The notes below the pieces were generated by a model. The model saw nothing but the letters and a program-made list of their open reading frames with translations. It did no database searches and was not told the origin of the DNA. Positions 4,504-39,954 of a DNA stretch of 39,954 nt are shown here, piece after piece. This stretch comes from a virus (Duplodnaviria > Heunggongvirae > Uroviricota > Caudoviricetes). Position numbers and translations under genes: made by a program. Location: positions 1 to 39,954 of IMG/VR virus record IMGVR_UViG_2534681675_000013; one strand, given 5' to 3'. The stretch's first letter is position 1. Each line of letters starts with the position of its first letter.

Positions 4504-4986
4504 TTATTTGATAAGAAGTGAAGGTTTCCCAACTTTGAGTTGAGCGCCGGGGATATTTATTCCTGCTTTTAGCTGGTGTTTGATTGCCAGTTTGTCGGCT
4601 TTAATTGTCGTTTCAAACTCAACGTATTCAGGAGGAAGGGCGCTTGAGTCGATTATTTCTACAATTTCTGACGGTTTGCGAATTGTTACCTGGTGAATAC
4701 CTGCTCGAATCTTTTTCTTGCCAACCATTTCAAGCGATGACGCTATATACGCCATAATGCTGTCAATCTTATTTTGAATTACTGCGGCTCTCTCATTTAG
4801 TGACTTTGCCTCGTCCTTGAGGCGTTCAGCATAACCAGATTCATTTTTAATAATGGCAAGAAGTTGCTCTATTTTATCGGTAAATTCTCCTTCCATTCCT
4901 TCTATTGTGTCAGCAATCATCTCTGGCTCTAAATCTGAATCCATCAGCTTTGCGTATTCATTGACTATTTCATACAGTTTGCTCAC
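4504..4986 (-). CDS. Gp157-family-like protein adjacent to recombinase
   Basis: About 160 aa, acidic/coiled; lies immediately downstream of the RecT-like gene, where Gp157-type proteins usually sit; start taken at GTG after GGAGG. Confidence 0.45.
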   Translation of the reverse strand: MSKLYEIVNEYAKLMDSDLEPEMIADTIEGMEGEFTDKIEQLLAIIKNESGYAERLKDEAKSLNERAAVIQNKIDSIMAYIASSLEMVGKKKIRAGIHQVTIRKPSEIVEIIDSSALPPEYVEFETTIKADKLAIKHQLKAGINIPGAQLKVGKPSLLIK

Positions 4987-5881
4987 TGGCAACCTCCAGT
5001 TTCGCTTTGCATTCTATGTAAATGGCTTGTACGTTCTGCTGCAATTTCATTCCAGATGTCAGGCGATATGCTTCTGCAAAATATCGTTTCAAATCATCCA
5101 TGTTTTCTGCCTGAGCCATTTCATCACAAAGAAGTTGAGCTTTTTCCATAATTTCCTGCTGGCGTTTCCGTTCATCTTCGCGGATATCTTCCTCTGATTT
5201 GTGCGGCATAACTGGTTCAGTCCATACACCTTCTTCTTCGTTTAGTACGTGAATAGCACTATCAAGACGTGATGCCTTAGGCCAATACTTGCTTGCACGC
5301 TTTACGACCGTCTTTCGCGCCATCTCATTCCAGTGATTTACCCATGGTCCTTTATCTCTGAATGCCGCCTTGCTTGTTTTCCTTACAGCCTCAATTTCAG
5401 CCAGACTCATCTCTTCCGTTAGATAATCACCTGCTGGCGTCTTAACTGTGCAGTAAACGCCAACGATATCACCACGATCACCGAAGGCGTTGTATTTATG
5501 GGTTGGTGCTTTATCAAGCCCGTTTGACTCATAGGTATCGTTAGCATGAACAAGTTTTGCCTGACCCCATGAGATAACACCAGACTCCATTGCAATATGG
5601 AGCAATCCCATATAACTGATATCAAGGCACACCATGCCGTCGCGCGGAACCAGATAAGCCAGTTTGCTAGCCGGGTTTAAGGTGATGCCGATCGCCGCAA
5701 CATTGATGATGGCGTTCTGTGCGCTGGTTGGATTTTCCAGTGCTGTTTTAGCCAGGTAATCATTTTTCTGGAAATACTGAATTGCAAACTGGCTTTCCTT
5801 AGCCCATGTCACCGTCTGTTCAGTCAATGCTCCGCAGAATAACTGCTCTTGCTGTTTAACGAATTCAACGATATTGCTCAT
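4970..5881 (-). CDS. RecT-family single-strand annealing protein
   Basis: 303 aa; region AAIGITLNPASKLAYLVPRDG...LDISYMGLLHIAMESGVISW fits the RecT pattern as I recall it; occupies the position of lambda bet/exo. Confidence 0.7.
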   Translation of the reverse strand: MSNIVEFVKQQEQLFCGALTEQTVTWAKESQFAIQYFQKNDYLAKTALENPTSAQNAIINVAAIGITLNPASKLAYLVPRDGMVCLDISYMGLLHIAMESGVISWGQAKLVHANDTYESNGLDKAPTHKYNAFGDRGDIVGVYCTVKTPAGDYLTEEMSLAEIEAVRKTSKAAFRDKGPWVNHWNEMARKTVVKRASKYWPKASRLDSAIHVLNEEEGVWTEPVMPHKSEEDIREDERKRQQEIMEKAQLLCDEMAQAENMDDLKRYFAEAYRLTSGMKLQQNVQAIYIECKAKLEVASEQTV

Positions 5882-6189
5882 GCTGCTTCTCCAAAAATGT
5901 GTCTGCGTTTGAATATTGCGAAGGCATATTCAGCCTTAACTCTTTTGGTTATTGCATCCCAGAACCATTCAGCGGCTTTTTCCTGATAGTCACAGTCATC
6001 ATCTTCCAGCCAGTCGATAGCGTCCTTAGTGTGTTCATCTGGCTTATATGAGCGAAGCATTTCGCTTATTGGGTCACAACGTTTGCAGAGGCGATCAACT
6101 TCACTGTTGATTCGTTCGTAATCTTCATCAGTAAAACTTGCGATGATTTGCGATATTTCACGCTTATCATTCAGAGTCAGAATCATCAT
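5878..6189 (-). CDS. Hypothetical protein (103 aa)
   Basis: ATGA-coupled to the RecT-like start; acidic; unknown function. Confidence 0.4.
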   Translation of the reverse strand: MMILTLNDKREISQIIASFTDEDYERINSEVDRLCKRCDPISEMLRSYKPDEHTKDAIDWLEDDDCDYQEKAAEWFWDAITKRVKAEYAFAIFKRRHIFGEAA

Positions 6190-6270
6190 CTTTCTCCTGT
6201 TCTTTGTGCTGATTGAGCATTTTGTTCATCTGACGAATGAATTCTTCGTCTGACCAGTTATCTGTAAAAC

Positions 6271-6423
6271 TCATTTCCTGCGATACCACGGAAGGTTGAT
6301 AGCTGATTTCATCTCTTTATTTGCTTCAAGCCACATTTTGGAATCACCAATAAATCTGGCTATTACTGCTTTGTTTTGTGCCGCACGAAGCATCTGGTGA
6401 TTGATGGCTATTTCATTGCGCAT
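6271..6423 (-). CDS. Small protein (50 aa) in the position of lambda kil
   Basis: Hand-translated MRNEIAINHQMLRAAQNKAVIARFIGDSKMWLEANKEMKSAINLPWYRRK with GGAGG upstream; below the ORF-track size cutoff; identity to Kil is positional only. Confidence 0.35.
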   Translation of the reverse strand: MRNEIAINHQMLRAAQNKAVIARFIGDSKMWLEANKEMKSAINLPWYRRK

Positions 6424-17535: not shown

Positions 17536-18184
17536 TGGCAGCAAATACCGAAATATTTGGGTAGTTGGCGATCTGCACGGATGCTACACGAACCTGATGA
17601 AAAAACTGGAGACGATAGGATTCGACACCAAAAAAGACCTGCTTATCTCGGTTGGCGATTTGGTCGATCGCGGTACAGAGAACGTTGAATGCCTGGAATT
17701 AATCACATTCCCCTGGTTCATAGCTGTACGTGGAAACCATGAGCAAATGATGATTGATGGCTTATCAGAGCGTGGAAACGTCAATCACTGGCTGCTTAAT
17801 GGCGGTGGCTGGTTCTTTAATCTCGATTACGACAAAGAAATTCTGGCTAAAGCTCTTGCCCATAAAGCAGATGAACTTCCGTTAATCATCGAACTGGTGA
17901 GCAAAGATAAAAAATATATCATCTGCCACGCCGATTATCCTTGTGACGAATACGAGTTTGGAAAGCCAGTTGATCATCAGCAGGTAATCTGGAACCGCGA
18001 ACGAATCAGCAACTCACAAGACGGGATCGTGAAAGAAATCAAAGGCGCGGACATGTTCATCTTTGGTCATACGCCCGCAGTGAAACCACTCAAATTTGCC
18101 AACCAGATGTATATCGATACTGGGGCAGTGTTCTGCGGAAATCTCACATTGATTCAGGTACAGGGAGAAGGCGCATGGGCATAA
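17513..18184 (+). CDS. ninI: NinI serine/threonine protein phosphatase
   Basis: Internal start [25 protein letters not shown]; metallophosphatase motifs GDLHG, GDLVDRG and GNHE visible. Confidence 0.85.
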
Positions 18185-18693
18185 GAGAACTAAACCTCAC
18201 CAAAGAACAGCACGAGTGGCTGAATGGCTGGCTTGAACTGTGGGGCGCATGGGTTTATTCAGGTCGTCTGGAAAAGCGCATGAGCAGCGTAATAGCGAAG
18301 TTTATGGAGAGCGTAGAGCCGGGAAGAGTTATTACAAGGCCAATGTGCAATGATGATGATGGAATGTTGATTTCTCAGGTCGTCGATTCCGTCATGTACA
18401 TTGACAAAAAAGCTTTTGGCATCCTCCTCAGCTACTACGCTCATGGTTCATCTAAGCGAGCAATTGCATCCTACTATCACGAGACTGCAAAGCCACGCAA
18501 GATGTGTGGACGTGGTGGCGAGGGATGGAGAAAACCTTCACTGGCAACCTGTAGAAACGAAATTGACGACATCCTGAAAGCGTCATTATTTGTTTTGTAC
18601 CAACCAATGCAAAATGCTTTCAAAATGCGTAAACGTGTTGATAAAGTTAAGCATGTTGCTGTTAAAAACCTTGACATGCAATTAGCCATTTAG
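18175..18693 (+). CDS. Q: Late antiterminator Q, non-lambda type
   Basis: Position (overlaps ninI stop, directly upstream of the lysis cassette); sequence is unlike lambda Q, so the call is positional. Likely a phage 21/82-type Q. Confidence 0.55.
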
Positions 18694-18724
18694 CCATAAT
18701 TAGAAGGTAAGCTGCCGTTAGTGA

Positions 18725-18753
18725 ATCTTAAGTTGCAACGGTGGCTTTTTTTT
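18725..18753 (+). terminator. Candidate tR'-like terminator downstream of Q
   Basis: Short inverted repeat (CCGTT...AACGG) followed by a run of eight T just before the first tRNA-like gene. Confidence 0.3.
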
Positions 18754-18757
18754 ATTT

Positions 18758-18832
18758 GGGTTAGTCGTATAAAGGTCATTACGGAAGGCTGTTAACCTTC
18801 TTATCGTGGTTCGAGTCCACGCTGTCCCGCCA
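18758..18832 (+). tRNA. tRNA-like gene, anticodon GTT (Asn), one acceptor-stem mismatch
   Basis: Hand-folded cloverleaf: anticodon stem GAAGG/CCTTC with loop CTGTTAA, T-arm CGTGG-TTCGAGT-CCACG, 3' CCA encoded; acceptor stem GGGTTAG/CTGTCCC has one T-T mismatch. Coordinates within 1-2 nt. Confidence 0.5.
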
Positions 18833-18837
18833 AACAT

Positions 18838-18913
18838 GCTGGTTTAGCTCCAATGGTAGAGCGGTCGCCTTGTAAGCGAATGGGTAGCGGTTCAAGTCCG
18901 TTAACCAGCACCA
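18838..18913 (+). tRNA. tRNA-like gene, anticodon TGT (Thr)
   Basis: Hand-folded: perfect 7-bp acceptor stem GCTGGTT/AACCAGC, D-arm GCTC-CAATGGTA-GAGC, anticodon loop CTTGTAA, T-arm AGCGG-TTCAAGT-CCGTT, discriminator A plus CCA. Confidence 0.55.
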
Positions 18914-19030
18914 TAACTGAGCCGTAGCCACTGGCTATCCTGAACTCATCAGTGATAGTTATGCCGCGGCCTTCTTTTTCCCCTTCCCAATATAAGAACT
19001 ACGCAATCCGTTACTTGCGGAGGCGTTGCT

Positions 19031-19246
19031 ATGAAATCAATGGACAAAATCTCTACTGGCATTGCCTACGGAACATCCGCGGGTAGTGCGGGATACTGGT
19101 TTTTGCAGTGGTTGGATCAGGTCAGTCCATCACAGTGGGCTGCGATTGGAGTGCTTGGAAGCCTTGTGTTGGGCTTTCTCACCTATCTGACAAATCTGTA
19201 CTTCAAAATCAGAGAAGACAGAAGAAAGGCTGCGAGAGGTGAATAA
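19031..19246 (+). CDS. S: Pinholin S (phage 21 type), dual-start
   Basis: 71 aa [71 protein letters not shown]; two in-frame Met (M1 and M4) and two TM segments, as in S21. Confidence 0.9.
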
Positions 19247-19743
19247 TGCCTCCATCATTACGAAAAGCCGTTGCTGCGGCTATTGGTGGCGGGGCTATTG
19301 CTATAGCATCTGTGTTAATCACTGGCCCAAGTGGTAACGATGGTCTGGAAGGCGTCAGCTACGTACCATATAAAGATATCGTTGGTGTATGGACTGTATG
19401 TCACGGACACACCGGAAAAGACATTATTCCCGGTAAAACGTATACCGAAGCAGAATGCAAAGCCCTCCTGAATAAAGACCTTGCTACGGTCGCCAGACAA
19501 ATTAACCCGTACATCAAAGCTGATATACCAGAAACAACACGCGGCGCTCTTTACTCGTTCGTTTACAACGTGGGCGCTGGCAATTTCAGAACATCGACGC
19601 TTCTTCGCAAAATAAACCAGGGCGATATCAAAGGCGCATGTGATCAACTACGTCGCTGGACATATGCTGGCGGTAAGCAATGGAAAGGGCTGATGACTCG
19701 CCGTGAGATTGAGCGTGAAGTCTGTTTGTGGGGGCAGCAATGA
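19246..19743 (+). CDS. R: SAR endolysin R (lysozyme)
   Basis: 165 aa with N-terminal signal-anchor-release segment ([20 protein letters not shown]) and lysozyme-like body; start overlaps S stop. Confidence 0.9.
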
Positions 19744-20177
19744 GCAGAGTAACCGCGATTATTTACGCTCTGGTTATCTGCATCATCGTCTGCCTGTCAT
19801 GGGCTGTTAATCATTACCGTGATAACGCAATCGCCTACAAAGAGCAGCGCGATAAAGCCACGTACATCATCGCTGACATGCAGAAGCGTCAACGTGATGT
19901 AGCAGAACTCGACGCCAGATACACAAAGGAGCTTGCTGATGCTAACGCGACTATCGAAAGTCTCCGTGCTGATGTTTCTGCTGGTCGTAAGCGCCTGCAA
20001 GTCGCCGCCACCTGTGCAAAGTCAACGACCGGAGCCAGCAGCATGGGCGATGGAGAAAGCCCAAGACTTACAGCAGATGCTGAACTCAATTATTACCGTC
20101 TCCGAAGTGGAATCGACAGGATAACCGCGCAGGTTAACTACCTGCAGGAGTACATCAGGACGCAATGCCTGAAATGA
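19740..20177 (+). CDS. Rz: Spanin inner-membrane subunit Rz
   Basis: Internal start [39 protein letters not shown]..., lambda Rz-like; ATGA-coupled to R. Confidence 0.85.
19933..20124 (+). CDS. Rz1: Spanin outer-membrane lipoprotein Rz1 (embedded in Rz, +1 frame)
   Basis: Embedded ORF with hydrophobic leader and lipobox (LLVVSAC) followed by a proline-rich segment; exact start among M1/M3/M14 is uncertain. Confidence 0.6.
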
Positions 20178-34926: not shown

Positions 34927-35316
34927 CTAACATTTTCTTTTTACTTTTCCAACAAAAGCTTTGGTTGAATCCATATTTCCATAACCGGAAATGGTTTTTG
35001 ACATTAAAACTGTTCCAGTAGGATGTATTACCCATGAGTCGATAACGCGTTGAGTTTCGCCATTCGCGCCGATTCCTATGATGGAGTTTTTAGACAATGC
35101 TTTGTAAGCCATGCCGCCCGCATCTGTCCCAGAATATGTGATGCTGGCATCTTCACCGCTTGTCTTAATGATGAATGTTCCACTAAAACCATCTTCTTCC
35201 GGATGGAAATTATTTCGTTCTGAATAGCTTATTCCGCGCATATCTCCAACGACCCAGCACTCTGCTGTAGCCCCAAAAGATATGAATAAGAACATAGCAG
35301 CAAGAAATTGCTTCAC
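34927..35316 (-). CDS. Small secreted protein (about 130 aa), cargo in the sieA slot
   Basis: GTG start after AGGAGG; predicted signal peptide VKQFLAAMFLFISFGATA with cleavage before ECW; cysteines near both ends of the mature protein; opposite strand to the virion genes. Confidence 0.5.
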   Translation of the reverse strand: MKQFLAAMFLFISFGATAECWVVGDMRGISYSERNNFHPEEDGFSGTFIIKTSGEDASITYSGTDAGGMAYKALSKNSIIGIGANGETQRVIDSWVIHPTGTVLMSKTISGYGNMDSTKAFVGKVKRKC

Positions 35317-36960: not shown

Positions 36961-37028
36961 AGTTGAAGCCCCAACTGCGGGAACAGTCAGGGCTTCGGTT
37001 GTCAGTAAATCTGTGGAGAAAAACCAAC

Positions 37029-38031: not shown

Positions 38032-39954
38032 ATGACAGATTCAATAAATGCCAATGTTGTAGTGAGCATGCCTTCGCAACTCTTCACTATGGCTCGTTCT
38101 TTTAAAGCCGTAGCCAATGGCAAAATTTATATCGGTAAAATTGACACTGACCCGGTAAATCCTGAAAACCAGATTCAGGTTTATGTAGAGAATGAAGACG
38201 GCTCTCACGTTCCTGTATCGCAACCAATCATCATTAACGCTGCTGGTTATCCTGTATATAACGGGCAGATTGCCAAGTTCGTCACTGTGCAAGGTCACTC
38301 GATGGCTGTGTATGACGCATTTAATGCACGACAGTTCTACCACCCAAATGTACTCAAGTACGATCCAGATCAATTCAAGCAGCAGCTAGCAAGCTCAGAA
38401 GATGGAATGGGTGACGCACTAGTTGCAGTTAAGCAGCCATATATCGGCTCAATAGCTTTAACTCAACATGATAAAAATACCAACTTCATTTCAGCCAAGG
38501 ATTTCGGTGCAACAGCTGACGGAACTCTGCATCCACTCAGCGAGAAATTCTCCACACTATCAGCGGCGCAGGCTGTTTATCCATTCGTAACATCACTAAC
38601 TCAGTCTCTTGACTATGCAGGCATACAGGCCGCAATTAATACAGGGCGGAATGTATTATTGACATCTGGAACTTACTTCGTAAATGCAACGATAGAGATG
38701 AATTCAAACTGCACAATAAATGGCGAAACAAACAGCAACATAAATAGGCCGGAAACTTTCATAGCAGTAATAGGAAATATAGCTTGTTTCCATTACCACG
38801 CAGCGTTTAATACAATAAATATTGAAAATGTCTATATTTTTTACGATGGAGGACGCCCTACATCACCTACTGGCAATGATGGTAAAATTGGCATTCTAAT
38901 TGATGGAGGAACTACTTCACCAGGCGTTATGCACATTAAAAATGTTGAGGTTGATGGTGCATGGTGGGCCATATATGATGACTCTGGAAATTACCTAACA
39001 AAGTATACCCAGGTATGGGCGAGGAGAGTTGCGCATGGTTTCTATAAGGCGAACGGAACGACAATACAGTGGGATACATGTTATGTGCTGGATGCAGCAC
39101 AGGCATGGTATGTTGTAAATTGCCTGTCTCCTCAGCTAATAAACTGTGCAGGAGACCAGATCACAGTTGACGGGTCGCAATATACATTTGATTCCTCAGG
39201 GTTATATTTTTCTGGATGTAAGTGTCTTACTATTACAGGGTATGATGGTGAGTCTAATATAATAAAAAATACAAATGGAATTACTGCGTCGTATATAAAA
39301 CTTAATGATACTATTGCCCATATATCAGGATTGGCCGGGCATGAAAACTCAATGCAAACAACGGGGAGTGGGACAGCAGCATTTATCTTTGCAACAGGCA
39401 CAAGCATTGTTAACATAAAATCAAGTACCGATAGCTTCCTTGATAGCGAATCAATAACCTACACTGGCTCTGGATACCCAAACACATTGCTGACAGACTC
39501 AACAGCAAAAATAATTGCTGAGGGATGCCGGTTTAAGGCTCCGACTGGTGGGACTCCTGTAATATCAACTTACAGCACAGGGAATGGAGTATTTACTGAC
39601 TGCTCATTAACTGGGACGCAAACTTCAGGCTCATATGTTGAATCACGAAGCTCTGCAGGTAATCAGTTGCCAGCAGTGTACACAGCGAAAGGAACTCAGG
39701 CTGTTGCAGCTAACGTAGCAACTACGTTGTTTGAACTGCCAAATAGCCAAGGGATGTACCTGATAAGCGTTTGGGCAGAAAGCAGTGGAACAAATTTCTC
39801 TTCGCTTCAGCTTGCCATGTGGGACGGAACAACACTTACTTTAACTCCGCTTAAGTCAGGAGGGTTGATATCATTTACAGTGACAGGAAGGATTGTAACC
39901 ATCACAAGCCAGGGAACAACAACATTTAACTGGACATACACCAAGGCAGGGTGA
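38032..39954 (+). CDS. Tailspike protein: P22-like head-binding N-terminus, divergent receptor-binding domain
   Basis: Internal start [51 protein letters not shown]... matches the P22 gp9 N-terminal domain for about 115 aa; the remainder is unrelated to P22 gp9 and Thr/Gly/Asn-rich; stop codon is the last triplet of the window. Confidence 0.9.

Follow-up and report, generated by a model that had tools for sequence, protein, structure and literature searches.

P2-OLD, the Toprim nuclease behind P2-lambda interference, kills by cutting the host tRNA-Thr(UGU), and phage-encoded tRNA-Thr(UGU) genes rescue the cells by replacing the cut tRNA (Govande 2025, PMC12445682). In the same work, the host thrU tRNA was found to be cut after the C of paired CNG motifs at positions 28–30 and 40–42, and the tRNA-Thr of phage 21 (hereafter tRNA-Thr21) was both protective against P2-OLD and resistant to cleavage in vitro, its resistance being ascribed to a shortening of the anticodon stem combined with changed CNG motifs (C28U/G42A). 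A preprint of July 2026 arrived independently at Thr(UGU) as the prime OLD target and reported that the tRNA-Thr of phage HK446 strongly rescued OLD-sensitive phages (10.64898/2026.07.10.737580). For AriB, the nuclease of PARIS, the determinants are U39, position 41, and U16 of the D-loop (Belukhina et al. 2025), and Gifsy-1 HepS cuts Thr(UGU) as a secondary target (PMC13043305). Here we describe a pair of genes, one for tRNA-Asn(GUU), the other for tRNA-Thr(UGU), in a 39,954-nucleotide (nt) stretch of DNA from a virus of the Caudoviricetes (IMG/VR record IMGVR_UViG_2534681675_000013, positions 1 to 39,954), which was analyzed at its full length and is called the window. The explanation that we find best, and regard as probable, is that of a late cassette in which tRNA-Thr is an anti-OLD replacement, the supply of ACA decoding is a secondary benefit, and tRNA-Asn probably has the same role as tRNA-Thr.

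The cassette as such is already known: it was first seen in phage 21 and is a mobile two-tRNA cassette of lambdoid and P22-like phages. The SfI genome paper placed the pair 3' of Q in SfI, Sf6, ST64T, PS3, and phage 21 (PMC3636060), and the two tRNAs are annotated in Sf6, phage 21, SfI, and BTP1. For the stretch homologous to that of the window, the curated records of Sf6 and phage 21 give the order pR', qut/Q-binding elements (QBE), tR', tRNA-Asn, tRNA-Thr, and then the lysis genes. The window contains tRNA-Asn(GUU), a 5-nt spacer, and tRNA-Thr(UGU), lying near the U-run of tR' and ending at TAACTGAGCCGTAGCC, as in the described cassette. The 311-nt region has matches of 90–98% identity in 75 phage records from Salmonella, Escherichia, Shigella, and Klebsiella, many with the tRNAs annotated, and the pair is found in 369 of 5,426 complete E. 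coli genomes (~7%), almost always on the chromosome. An earlier reading of the same DNA (hereafter the original prediction), which had noticed both genes, left out the published anti-P2-OLD role of tRNA-Thr (PMC12445682).

Structure of the two tRNA genes

The cassette consists of the following elements.

18758..18832, + strand: tRNA-Asn(GUU), 75 nt; ARAGORN, Rfam, and cloverleaf layout
18833..18837, + strand: spacer AACAT, 5 nt between tRNA-Asn and tRNA-Thr; also 5 nt long in each of 110 Asn+Thr loci
18838..18913, + strand: tRNA-Thr(UGU), 76 nt; ARAGORN and Rfam

The original prediction of two adjacent tRNA genes of 75–76 nt, with anticodons GTT (Asn) and TGT (Thr) and an encoded CCA, was borne out by three approaches. 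ARAGORN, a standard predictor named there as a check, calls tRNA-Asn(gtt) and tRNA-Thr(tgt) as the only tRNAs in the window; Rfam RF00005 (gathering score 29) matches tRNA-Asn with 53.1 bits (E 8.6e-9) and tRNA-Thr with 61.2 bits (E 5.1e-11); and the manual cloverleaf layout shows a 3' CCA encoded in each. The location between Q and the lysis cassette was also given correctly, a PF06530 gene lying upstream and the S21, endolysin, and Rz genes downstream. As for the start, the genes had been placed directly after a T-run from position 18725 onward; a run of eight T residues (18746–18753) does stop 4 nt 5' of tRNA-Asn, but position 18725 itself falls in the hairpin loop of tR', and the tRNA starts at 18758.

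All core nucleotides (U8, A14, G18G19, U33, a purine at 37, the G53-T54-Psi55-C56 T-loop, A58, and CCA) are found in tRNA-Asn, and the same set, except for C14 replacing A14, is found in tRNA-Thr. The identity elements for asparaginyl-tRNA synthetase (AsnRS) are G34, U35, U36, and G73, and those for threonyl-tRNA synthetase (ThrRS) are G1-C72, C2-G71, G35, and U36; in the cloverleaf layout, the former are present in tRNA-Asn and the latter in tRNA-Thr. The acceptor mismatch and short D-stem that had been pointed out in the first tRNA were found as U4·U69 and as a U13·U22 non-pair leaving a D-stem of 3 base pairs, together with a 4-nt variable loop, C9, and the discriminator G73. The second tRNA had been described as folding cleanly, which does not hold strictly, as a G27·A43 non-pair tops its anticodon stem and G50·U64 is a wobble.

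The D-arm of tRNA-Thr, GCUC-CAAUGGUA-GAGC with C14, also occurs in cellular tRNA-Trp, tRNA-Phe, and tRNA-Thr genes of many bacteria; the C14 D-loop is therefore compatible with function and not a defect. When the D-arm query TAGCTCCAATGGTAGAGC was run against genome contigs, the matches listed were mostly cellular tRNA-Trp and tRNA-Phe from Campylobacterota and Coriobacteriia, and no host range for the cassette was obtained among these matches listed. Collectively, it may be concluded that both genes are genuine tRNAs with the anticodons Asn-GUU and Thr-UGU.

As a separate observation, the D-arm UAGCUCCAAUGGUAGAGC (nt 8–25 of tRNA-Thr, 18845–18862), having C at a position 14 that is near-universally A, is common among the chromosomal tRNA-Trp and tRNA-Phe genes that Campylobacterota, Coriobacteriia, and other groups carry, and the P1 record describes trnT as 87% identical to the tRNA-Thr of Campylobacter jejuni. 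The sequences hint that the phage tRNA-Thr lineage may not have originated in enterobacteria.

Anticodon arms and the proposed anti-nuclease role

The anticodon arms of the two phage tRNAs and of their host counterparts are as follows (nt 39, 41, and 16 in this order).

Host thrU: arm ACUGA-CUUGUAA-UCAGU; CNG motifs CUG / CAG; 27:43 paired; U, A, U
Window tRNA-Thr: arm GUCGC-CUUGUAA-GCGAA; CNG motifs none; 27:43 G·A, unpaired; G, G, A
Host asnT: arm GCGGA-CUGUUAA-UCCGU; CNG motifs CGG / CCG; 27:43 paired (G·U wobble); U, C, U
Window tRNA-Asn: arm GAAGG-CUGUUAA-CCUUC; CNG motifs none; 27:43 paired; C, U, A

The arm of the window tRNA-Thr is that of tRNA-Thr21. It combines the UGU anticodon and A37 (loop CUUGUAA) with UCG and CGA in place of the CUG and CAG of host thrU, and no CNG motif is found on either strand of the stem. 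In its sequence, the window tRNA-Thr has every feature of the published OLD-resistant class. Moreover, U39, A41, and U16, the AriB determinants, are absent from it. The original prediction had proposed a comparison with the host tRNAs, and this comparison shows differences from the host at the CNG motif and at nt 39, 41, and 16 in both tRNAs, with tRNA-Asn being 57% identical to asnT and carrying AAG/CUU where asnT has the paired CGG/CCG.

We propose that tRNA-Thr would resist the nucleases and take the place of the host tRNA-Thr(UGU), which is encoded by a single-copy gene (thrU) and is the prime target of the Toprim nucleases P2-OLD and PARIS AriB. The replacement role has been shown for the phage 21 and HK446 tRNA with an identical arm, and the window copy would share it on the grounds of that identity. 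Judging from the position of the cassette, transcription from the late promoter pR' would reach it only when Q allows read-through, along with the lysis and virion genes, and the phage tRNA-Thr would then keep ACA readable in the late genes once the host tRNA has been cut. Seen in this way, the cassette would be a natural case in which a temperate phage, instead of a large tRNA array, has replacement tRNAs resistant to nucleases.

Several points weigh against this explanation. The published rescue by one tRNA was partial in both studies, with small colonies in one of them (Govande et al., PMC12445682), and a single viral tRNA-Thr rescued neither lambda nor cells from OLD toxicity in a recB-deficient background (10.64898/2026.07.10.737580). 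The window tRNA-Thr differs from the assayed copy at nt 26, outside the stem, and the loss of the CNG and U39 determinants was judged against host thrU and asnT alone. The role of tRNA-Asn is a prediction from its sequence, and a private C5 -> U change in the window copy adjoins U4·U69 and might weaken the acceptor stem. With respect to timing, OLD is triggered early and the tRNAs lie behind tR', and Q itself contains ACA as one of its four Thr codons, which is a timing difficulty for the rescue, unless part of the host tRNA survives or tR' is leaky; the late, Q-dependent expression, although a strong inference, is derived from position only. A tRNA-Lys(UUU) is not among the two tRNA genes that ARAGORN calls in the window, which may not be the whole phage genome. 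Since a resistant tRNA-Lys(UUU) is required for bypass of the B185 PARIS, whose main target is tRNA-Lys(UUU) (Belukhina 2025), the cassette alone could not defeat that system. Lastly, homologues of lambda Gam, Abc2, and Oad2 were looked for in the window and not found, so that the window phage may not trigger OLD at all.

One further idea, an 'ACA-free path to Q' in thrU-depleted cells, was rejected on account of the ACA codon in Q. A 40-aa open reading frame (ORF) at 6167–6289 (- strand) includes a 21-residue stretch 76% identical to HK446 Gp33 (56 aa), a short match whose E of 1.4e-8 is against the window alone; HK446 Gp33 is a small protein reported as a P2-OLD trigger (10.64898/2026.07.10.737580).

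Conservation of the tRNA pair

Conservation was analyzed on 120 IMG/VR loci anchored on an exact 25-mer of the tRNA-Asn 3' end, a sample biased towards close copies; diversity was computed on a MAFFT alignment, and the figure for tRNA-Asn covers only its unanchored 50 nt (nt 1–50). The Asn and Thr genes were present together in 109 of the 120 loci, with a spacer of 5 nt every time. Nucleotide diversity was 0.006 for tRNA-Asn, 0.017 for tRNA-Thr, and 0.108 for the 5-nt spacer, compared with 0.16 for the leader and terminator, 0.35 for the promoter and Q end, and 0.21 for the downstream spacer, a large share of these flank values being due to whole-module replacement; the contrast is sharp all the same. 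One and the same anticodon arm was shared by 104 of the 111 Thr copies, and the Asn arm was likewise constant in 115 of the 119 copies. In tRNA-Thr, compensatory double changes were observed at two pairs (G5-C68 -> U5-A68 and A49-U65 -> G49-C65), 94% of the cells were paired across the variants, and the covariation score was reached by 1 of 500 shuffles, while position 27:43 was unpaired in all 19 distinct variants; tRNA-Asn showed too little variation for covariation.

The window tRNA-Thr matches the copies of SfI and vB_SosS_Oslo at 100% identity and those of phage 21, HK446, and Sf6 at 98.7%, differing from tRNA-Thr21 by A26 -> G only; the G26 form occurs also in SfI, vB_SosS_Oslo, and at least 17 IMG/VR loci. 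The window tRNA-Asn is 98.7% identical to the copies of phage 21, Sf6, and HK446, the sole difference being the C5 -> U change, by which C5-G68 becomes a U5·G68 wobble.

These data bear on the suggestion in the original prediction that one of the genes is possibly degenerate, namely that tRNA-Asn is a decaying or non-functional gene carried along with tRNA-Thr. Such decay might be read from the U4·U69 mismatch, the U13·U22 non-pair, the 4-nt variable loop, and C9, to which the window copy adds a wobble beside the mismatch, as well as from an Rfam score (53.1 bits) below that of tRNA-Thr and an identity of only 57% to host asnT. The mismatch and the short D-stem are, however, fixed in 118 of 119 Asn copies and identical in phage 21, Sf6, and HK446, and the diversity of tRNA-Asn is lower than that of tRNA-Thr and ~30 times lower than that of the flanks. 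Its anticodon arm is unchanged in the 115 copies mentioned above, its Rfam score is well over the gathering score, and G73, the GUU anticodon, and the T-loop are intact; furthermore, the gene is kept even in variant cassettes with a rearranged Thr slot. We regard decay of tRNA-Asn as highly improbable. Neither gene appears to be degenerate, both being conserved far above their flanks, and for annotation the two are genuine late-operon tRNA genes that should not be flagged as pseudogenes.

A minority cassette was noticed in 8 of the 120 loci (L029, L010, L064, L073, and L091 among them; ST64T / phage L type), with a chimera in the tRNA-Thr slot that corresponds to 18838–18913 of the window. The chimera is of phage type over its 5' 26 nt and host thrU-like over its 3' 50 nt, and a glyT-like tRNA-Gly(UCC) follows 3 nt further on; the host order is thrU-tyrU-glyT, of which tyrU is missing here. 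The chimera is intact in L091; those of L029 and L010 have two mismatches in the anticodon stem and are not called by ARAGORN. Gly(UCC) is a listed OLD target (10.64898/2026.07.10.737580), and the phage L record labels the area of the chimera 'tRNA-Leu'.

tRNA-Asn and the recurrence of the Asn-Thr pair

Host tRNA-Asn is cut by AriB (Belukhina 2025) and by P2-OLD (PMC12445682), in both cases more slowly than the prime targets. As a prediction, the phage tRNA-Asn would most likely replace host tRNA-Asn(GUU), this secondary target of P2-OLD and AriB. The literature searched on OLD and PARIS treats only the Thr gene, and the tRNA-Asn of phage 21 was not assayed there; the SfI paper called the significance of tRNA-Asn 'not clear' (PMC3636060). 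The preprint describes HK446 as encoding 'a single' tRNA, Thr(UGU) (10.64898/2026.07.10.737580). In the HK446 record (NC_019714), however, two tRNA genes identical to those of phage 21 lie at 35097–35171 and 35177–35252, both unannotated; thus, the Asn gene, 5 nt upstream of tRNA-Thr, was overlooked.

The same two specificities recur in other phages. P1 has trnA (Asn-GUU) and trnT (Thr-UGU) in tandem with a 2-nt spacer, besides trnI, and the four-tRNA cluster of N4 comprises Asn(GUU), Ser(UGA), Thr(UGU), and Pro(UGG). The P1 and N4 tRNA-Thr are 80–86% identical to that of the window. Their tRNA-Asn belong to a different lineage, with a GAUGGUG... acceptor stem, which argues that the Asn-Thr pairing was assembled more than once. 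In N4, both the Asn and the Thr tRNA are without CNG, and in P1, the tRNA-Thr retains CNG but has G39. The pattern agrees with selection for the two tRNAs as one set, although shared codon preferences could contribute.

It is conceivable, though in our estimate somewhat less than an even chance, that tRNA-Asn is not a passenger but the second arm of a minimal anti-Toprim-nuclease cassette, in which the pair would be kept as an answer to OLD/PARIS-type nucleases, whose targets include both host tRNAs, the determinants (paired CNG and U39) being gone from the phage copies. If this were true, the same pressure would explain why unrelated coliphages with 2–4 tRNAs (phage 21-type, P1, and N4) converge on the pair. 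The advance is a small one, namely that the neglected tRNA-Asn has lost the same determinants as tRNA-Thr, was overlooked in HK446, and recurs with tRNA-Thr in P1 and N4; together, these three findings lead to a testable prediction on the target range of OLD/PARIS-type defences.

Codon supply and integration site

Codons were counted on greedy ORF calls, with two 50-kb samples of K-12 as the host reference. The frequency of ACA per 1000 codons was 17.9 in the window, compared with 5.5 in one K-12 sample, 9.0 in the other, and 4.4 in ribosomal-protein genes, corresponding to a 3.2–3.3-fold enrichment over the sample with 5.5 (odds ratio 3.3, p 1e-21). For Asn codons, the late genes had 56.6 per 1000, compared with 44.6 for the early genes and 37–43 for K-12, and AAC was enriched in late versus early genes with an odds ratio of 1.52 (p 3e-4). 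A partial tailspike-like ORF at 38032–39954 (+ strand) is extremely rich in ACA, which makes up 36 of its 641 codons (56 per 1000) and 36 of its 72 Thr codons; this rate is ~10 times that of the K-12 sample with 5.5 per 1000, and the ORF holds about one-sixth (36/212) of the ACA in the window ORFs.

From such figures, the pair might be taken to serve codon supplementation only, for ACA and for the Asn codons in virion genes, with nuclease resistance being incidental. That thrU is a single-copy gene, that ACA is somewhat less frequent (13.3 per 1000) in P22, which is without the tRNAs, and that the SfI paper ascribed tRNA-Thr to ACA codon bias (PMC3636060) would agree with this. The top host-relative enrichments, however, are those of AGG (7.4-fold), AGA (7.1-fold), AUA (4.8-fold), and UCA (3.5-fold), for none of which there is a phage tRNA, and the SfI authors gave no codon rationale for Asn (PMC3636060). 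Moreover, over-expressed host thrU protected little or not at all against OLD, unlike the phage tRNAs (PMC12445682), which shows that the sequence differences between the tRNAs matter, and the changes in both window tRNAs are concentrated on the mapped nuclease determinants. Codon supplementation as the sole function is in our view unlikely. The codon-supply and anti-nuclease readings do not exclude each other: as a second benefit to the anti-OLD replacement, the cassette may raise the capacity to decode ACA, which is over-used by the phage and especially by the tailspike gene. Added capacity for Thr(UGU) and for Asn late in infection would plausibly be of use. Codon supply is plausibly such a compatible secondary benefit and not the full explanation.

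Another proposal, raised for HK446 in the preprint, is that the phage tRNA makes up for a tRNA gene of the host, for instance thrW, in which the phage integrates (10.64898/2026.07.10.737580). HK446 and SfI do integrate in thrW; the phage anticodon is, however, UGU and that of thrW is CGU. Besides, attP sites of the thrW kind normally rebuild the tRNA gene. A cassette behind tR' should be nearly silent in the lysogen, tRNA-Asn would be left unexplained, and the same pair is found in P1, a plasmid prophage, and in the virulent N4. Compensation for the integration site is, in our judgment, extremely improbable.

Predicted late transcription and the exchangeable slot

The features on both sides of the cassette are as follows.

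18175..18693, + strand: Q-family late antiterminator gene; Pfam PF06530 Phage_antitermQ, E 9.7e-26; like Sf6 gene 59
18671..18700, + strand: late promoter pR' (TTGACA, 18-nt spacer, CATAAT); promoter scan, 11/12 positions matched
18680–18695: tandem 8-nt repeat AATTAGCC/ATTTAGCC between -35 and -10 of pR'; read directly from the sequence
18707..18757, + strand: late leader RNA and intrinsic terminator tR'; hairpin 18709–18747, U8 run 18746–18753
18914..18975, + strand: conserved right-hand cassette boundary (TAACTGAGCCGTAGCCACTG...); four-way alignment; common to lambda, HK446, and phage 21
19031..19246, + strand: first late gene, a phage 21-type class II pinholin/antiholin (S21, 71 aa); ORF list
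19246–19743: SAR endolysin, after the S21 pinholin
19728–20177: Rz, after the SAR endolysin

Genes homologous to the window Q are annotated as Q or antiterminator in Sf6, BTP1, and others, gene 59 being described in the Sf6 record as similar to phage 21 Q. The near-consensus pR' overlaps the 3' end of the Q gene, and the homologous site is named pR' in the Sf6 and phage 21 records. In the phage 21 record, the QBE repeats ATTGAGCA/AATGAGCA occupy the equivalent place and extend to the -10 element, including its first base. Because AATTAGCC/ATTTAGCC occupies the place of these phage 21 Q-binding elements, the repeats suggest that the window Q may belong to the same family as phage 21 Q but have another DNA specificity. 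The start site of the leader (~18707) was placed by homology with phage 21. The 51-nt leader folds at -16.1 kcal/mol (z = -3.8), a value equalled by 1 of 200 shuffles in RNA folding, and the site is labelled terminator in the Sf6 and phage 21 records; tR' was identified by this folding and homology, having been missed by a consensus terminator scan, since its loop exceeds the 8-nt limit of the scan. The lysis genes match the phage 21 record in order and gene sizes, and the window is alignable with phage 21 up to the holin start.

A four-way alignment placed the left boundary of the cassette at the terminator U-run (...TTTTTTATTT|GGG) and the right boundary at TAACTGAGCCGTAGCC, which is present in lambda too. 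The same right-boundary 18-mer lies directly 3' of tRNA-Thr in 103 of 109 loci, and a T-run lies within 16 nt 5' of tRNA-Asn in 117 of 118 loci. The terminator before the cassette was of the phage 21 type in ~95 of the 118 loci, of the lambda type in ~21, and of a third type in 2. HK446 is lambda-like on both sides, its Q, pR', 6S leader, and tR' upstream being of the lambda type and an S gene lying downstream. In lambda itself (44400–45600), an unrelated filler of 161 nt, part of 'orf-64', stands where the window (18754–18913) has the 156-nt tRNA pair, and the two are bounded alike by the tR' U-run and AACTGAGCCGTAGCC. Filler and pair are alternative occupants of a single recombination slot, with no detectable homology in the alignment. 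Such a recombination-friendly slot would let the cassette move between lambdoid phages with different Q systems.

Since the cassette directly follows tR' whatever the Q system, it would in all cases be the first thing transcribed after antitermination, and its tRNAs would be late and Q-dependent. Late expression of this kind had been part of the original prediction, and the T-run upstream of nearly every copy supports it.

The notion that the lambda filler is a decayed tRNA pair was rejected, as the alignment (z = 1.6) was equalled by 31 of 500 shuffles and no Rfam tRNA hit was obtained on the filler; relaxed ARAGORN made one call on it, on the opposite strand, which was judged spurious.

Phage background of the cassette

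The window is that of a mosaic temperate phage, in which the early region is lambda-like, the virion genes are P22-like, and a sar RNA of the P22 type is present. The full-length sar antisense RNA lies at 36961–37028 (- strand; Rfam RF00262, 92.3 bits, E 1.4e-18); because sar RNA regulates the antirepressor gene ant of P22 immI, the window phage has a P22-type second immunity region. A recombination module at 4507–5881 (- strand) includes RecT (PF03837) and a Gp157 / Mu-Gam-like protein (PHROG 253), and is neither lambda Red/Gam nor P22 Erf/Abc, despite an early region that otherwise resembles that of lambda.

Comparison with known systems

Phage 21 (OL657228) is a close counterpart, its pR'-QBE-tR'-tRNA-Asn-tRNA-Thr-S21 arrangement having the same order, 5-nt spacer, terminator, right boundary, and lysis genes as the window. 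The two differ by one nucleotide in tRNA-Asn (C5U) and one in tRNA-Thr (A26G), with identical anticodon arms. In contrast, the Q gene differs, as do the Q-binding repeats (ATTGAGCA/AATGAGCA in phage 21 and AATTAGCC/ATTTAGCC in the window), and the virion genes are lambda-like in phage 21 and P22-like in the window. In Sf6, SfI, BTP1, and HK446, the region is 96–98% identical to that of the window; Sf6 also has the Q type and promoter of the window, whereas Sf6 and HK446 carry lambda-type S/R lysis genes.

Stx-converting lambdoid phages carry ileZ-argN-argO between Q/pR'/tR' and the lysis genes under late control, the position that the cassette takes in the window. The specificities of ileZ-argN-argO differ from those of the window, being directed to the rare codons AUA, AGA, and AGG, and are explained by codon usage.

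T5 encodes the same two anticodons, and the window tRNAs likewise replace U39 and alter position 41 and position 16 of the D-loop. The arm of the AriB-resistant T5 tRNA-Thr (GUUGC..GCAUC) is nearly the same as that of the window (GUCGC..GCGAA), whereas the T5 and window tRNAs are only 58–62% identical overall. T5 differs further in having at least 24 tRNAs, including an essential tRNA-Lys variant, which are not under Q control, compared with the two of the window phage, neither of them Lys. In N4, Asn(GUU) and Thr(UGU) occur within a cluster whose context and regulation differ from those of the window. In P1, Asn(GUU) and Thr(UGU) are adjacent and in the same order as in the window, separated by 2 nt instead of 5 nt, again in a different context and under different regulation.

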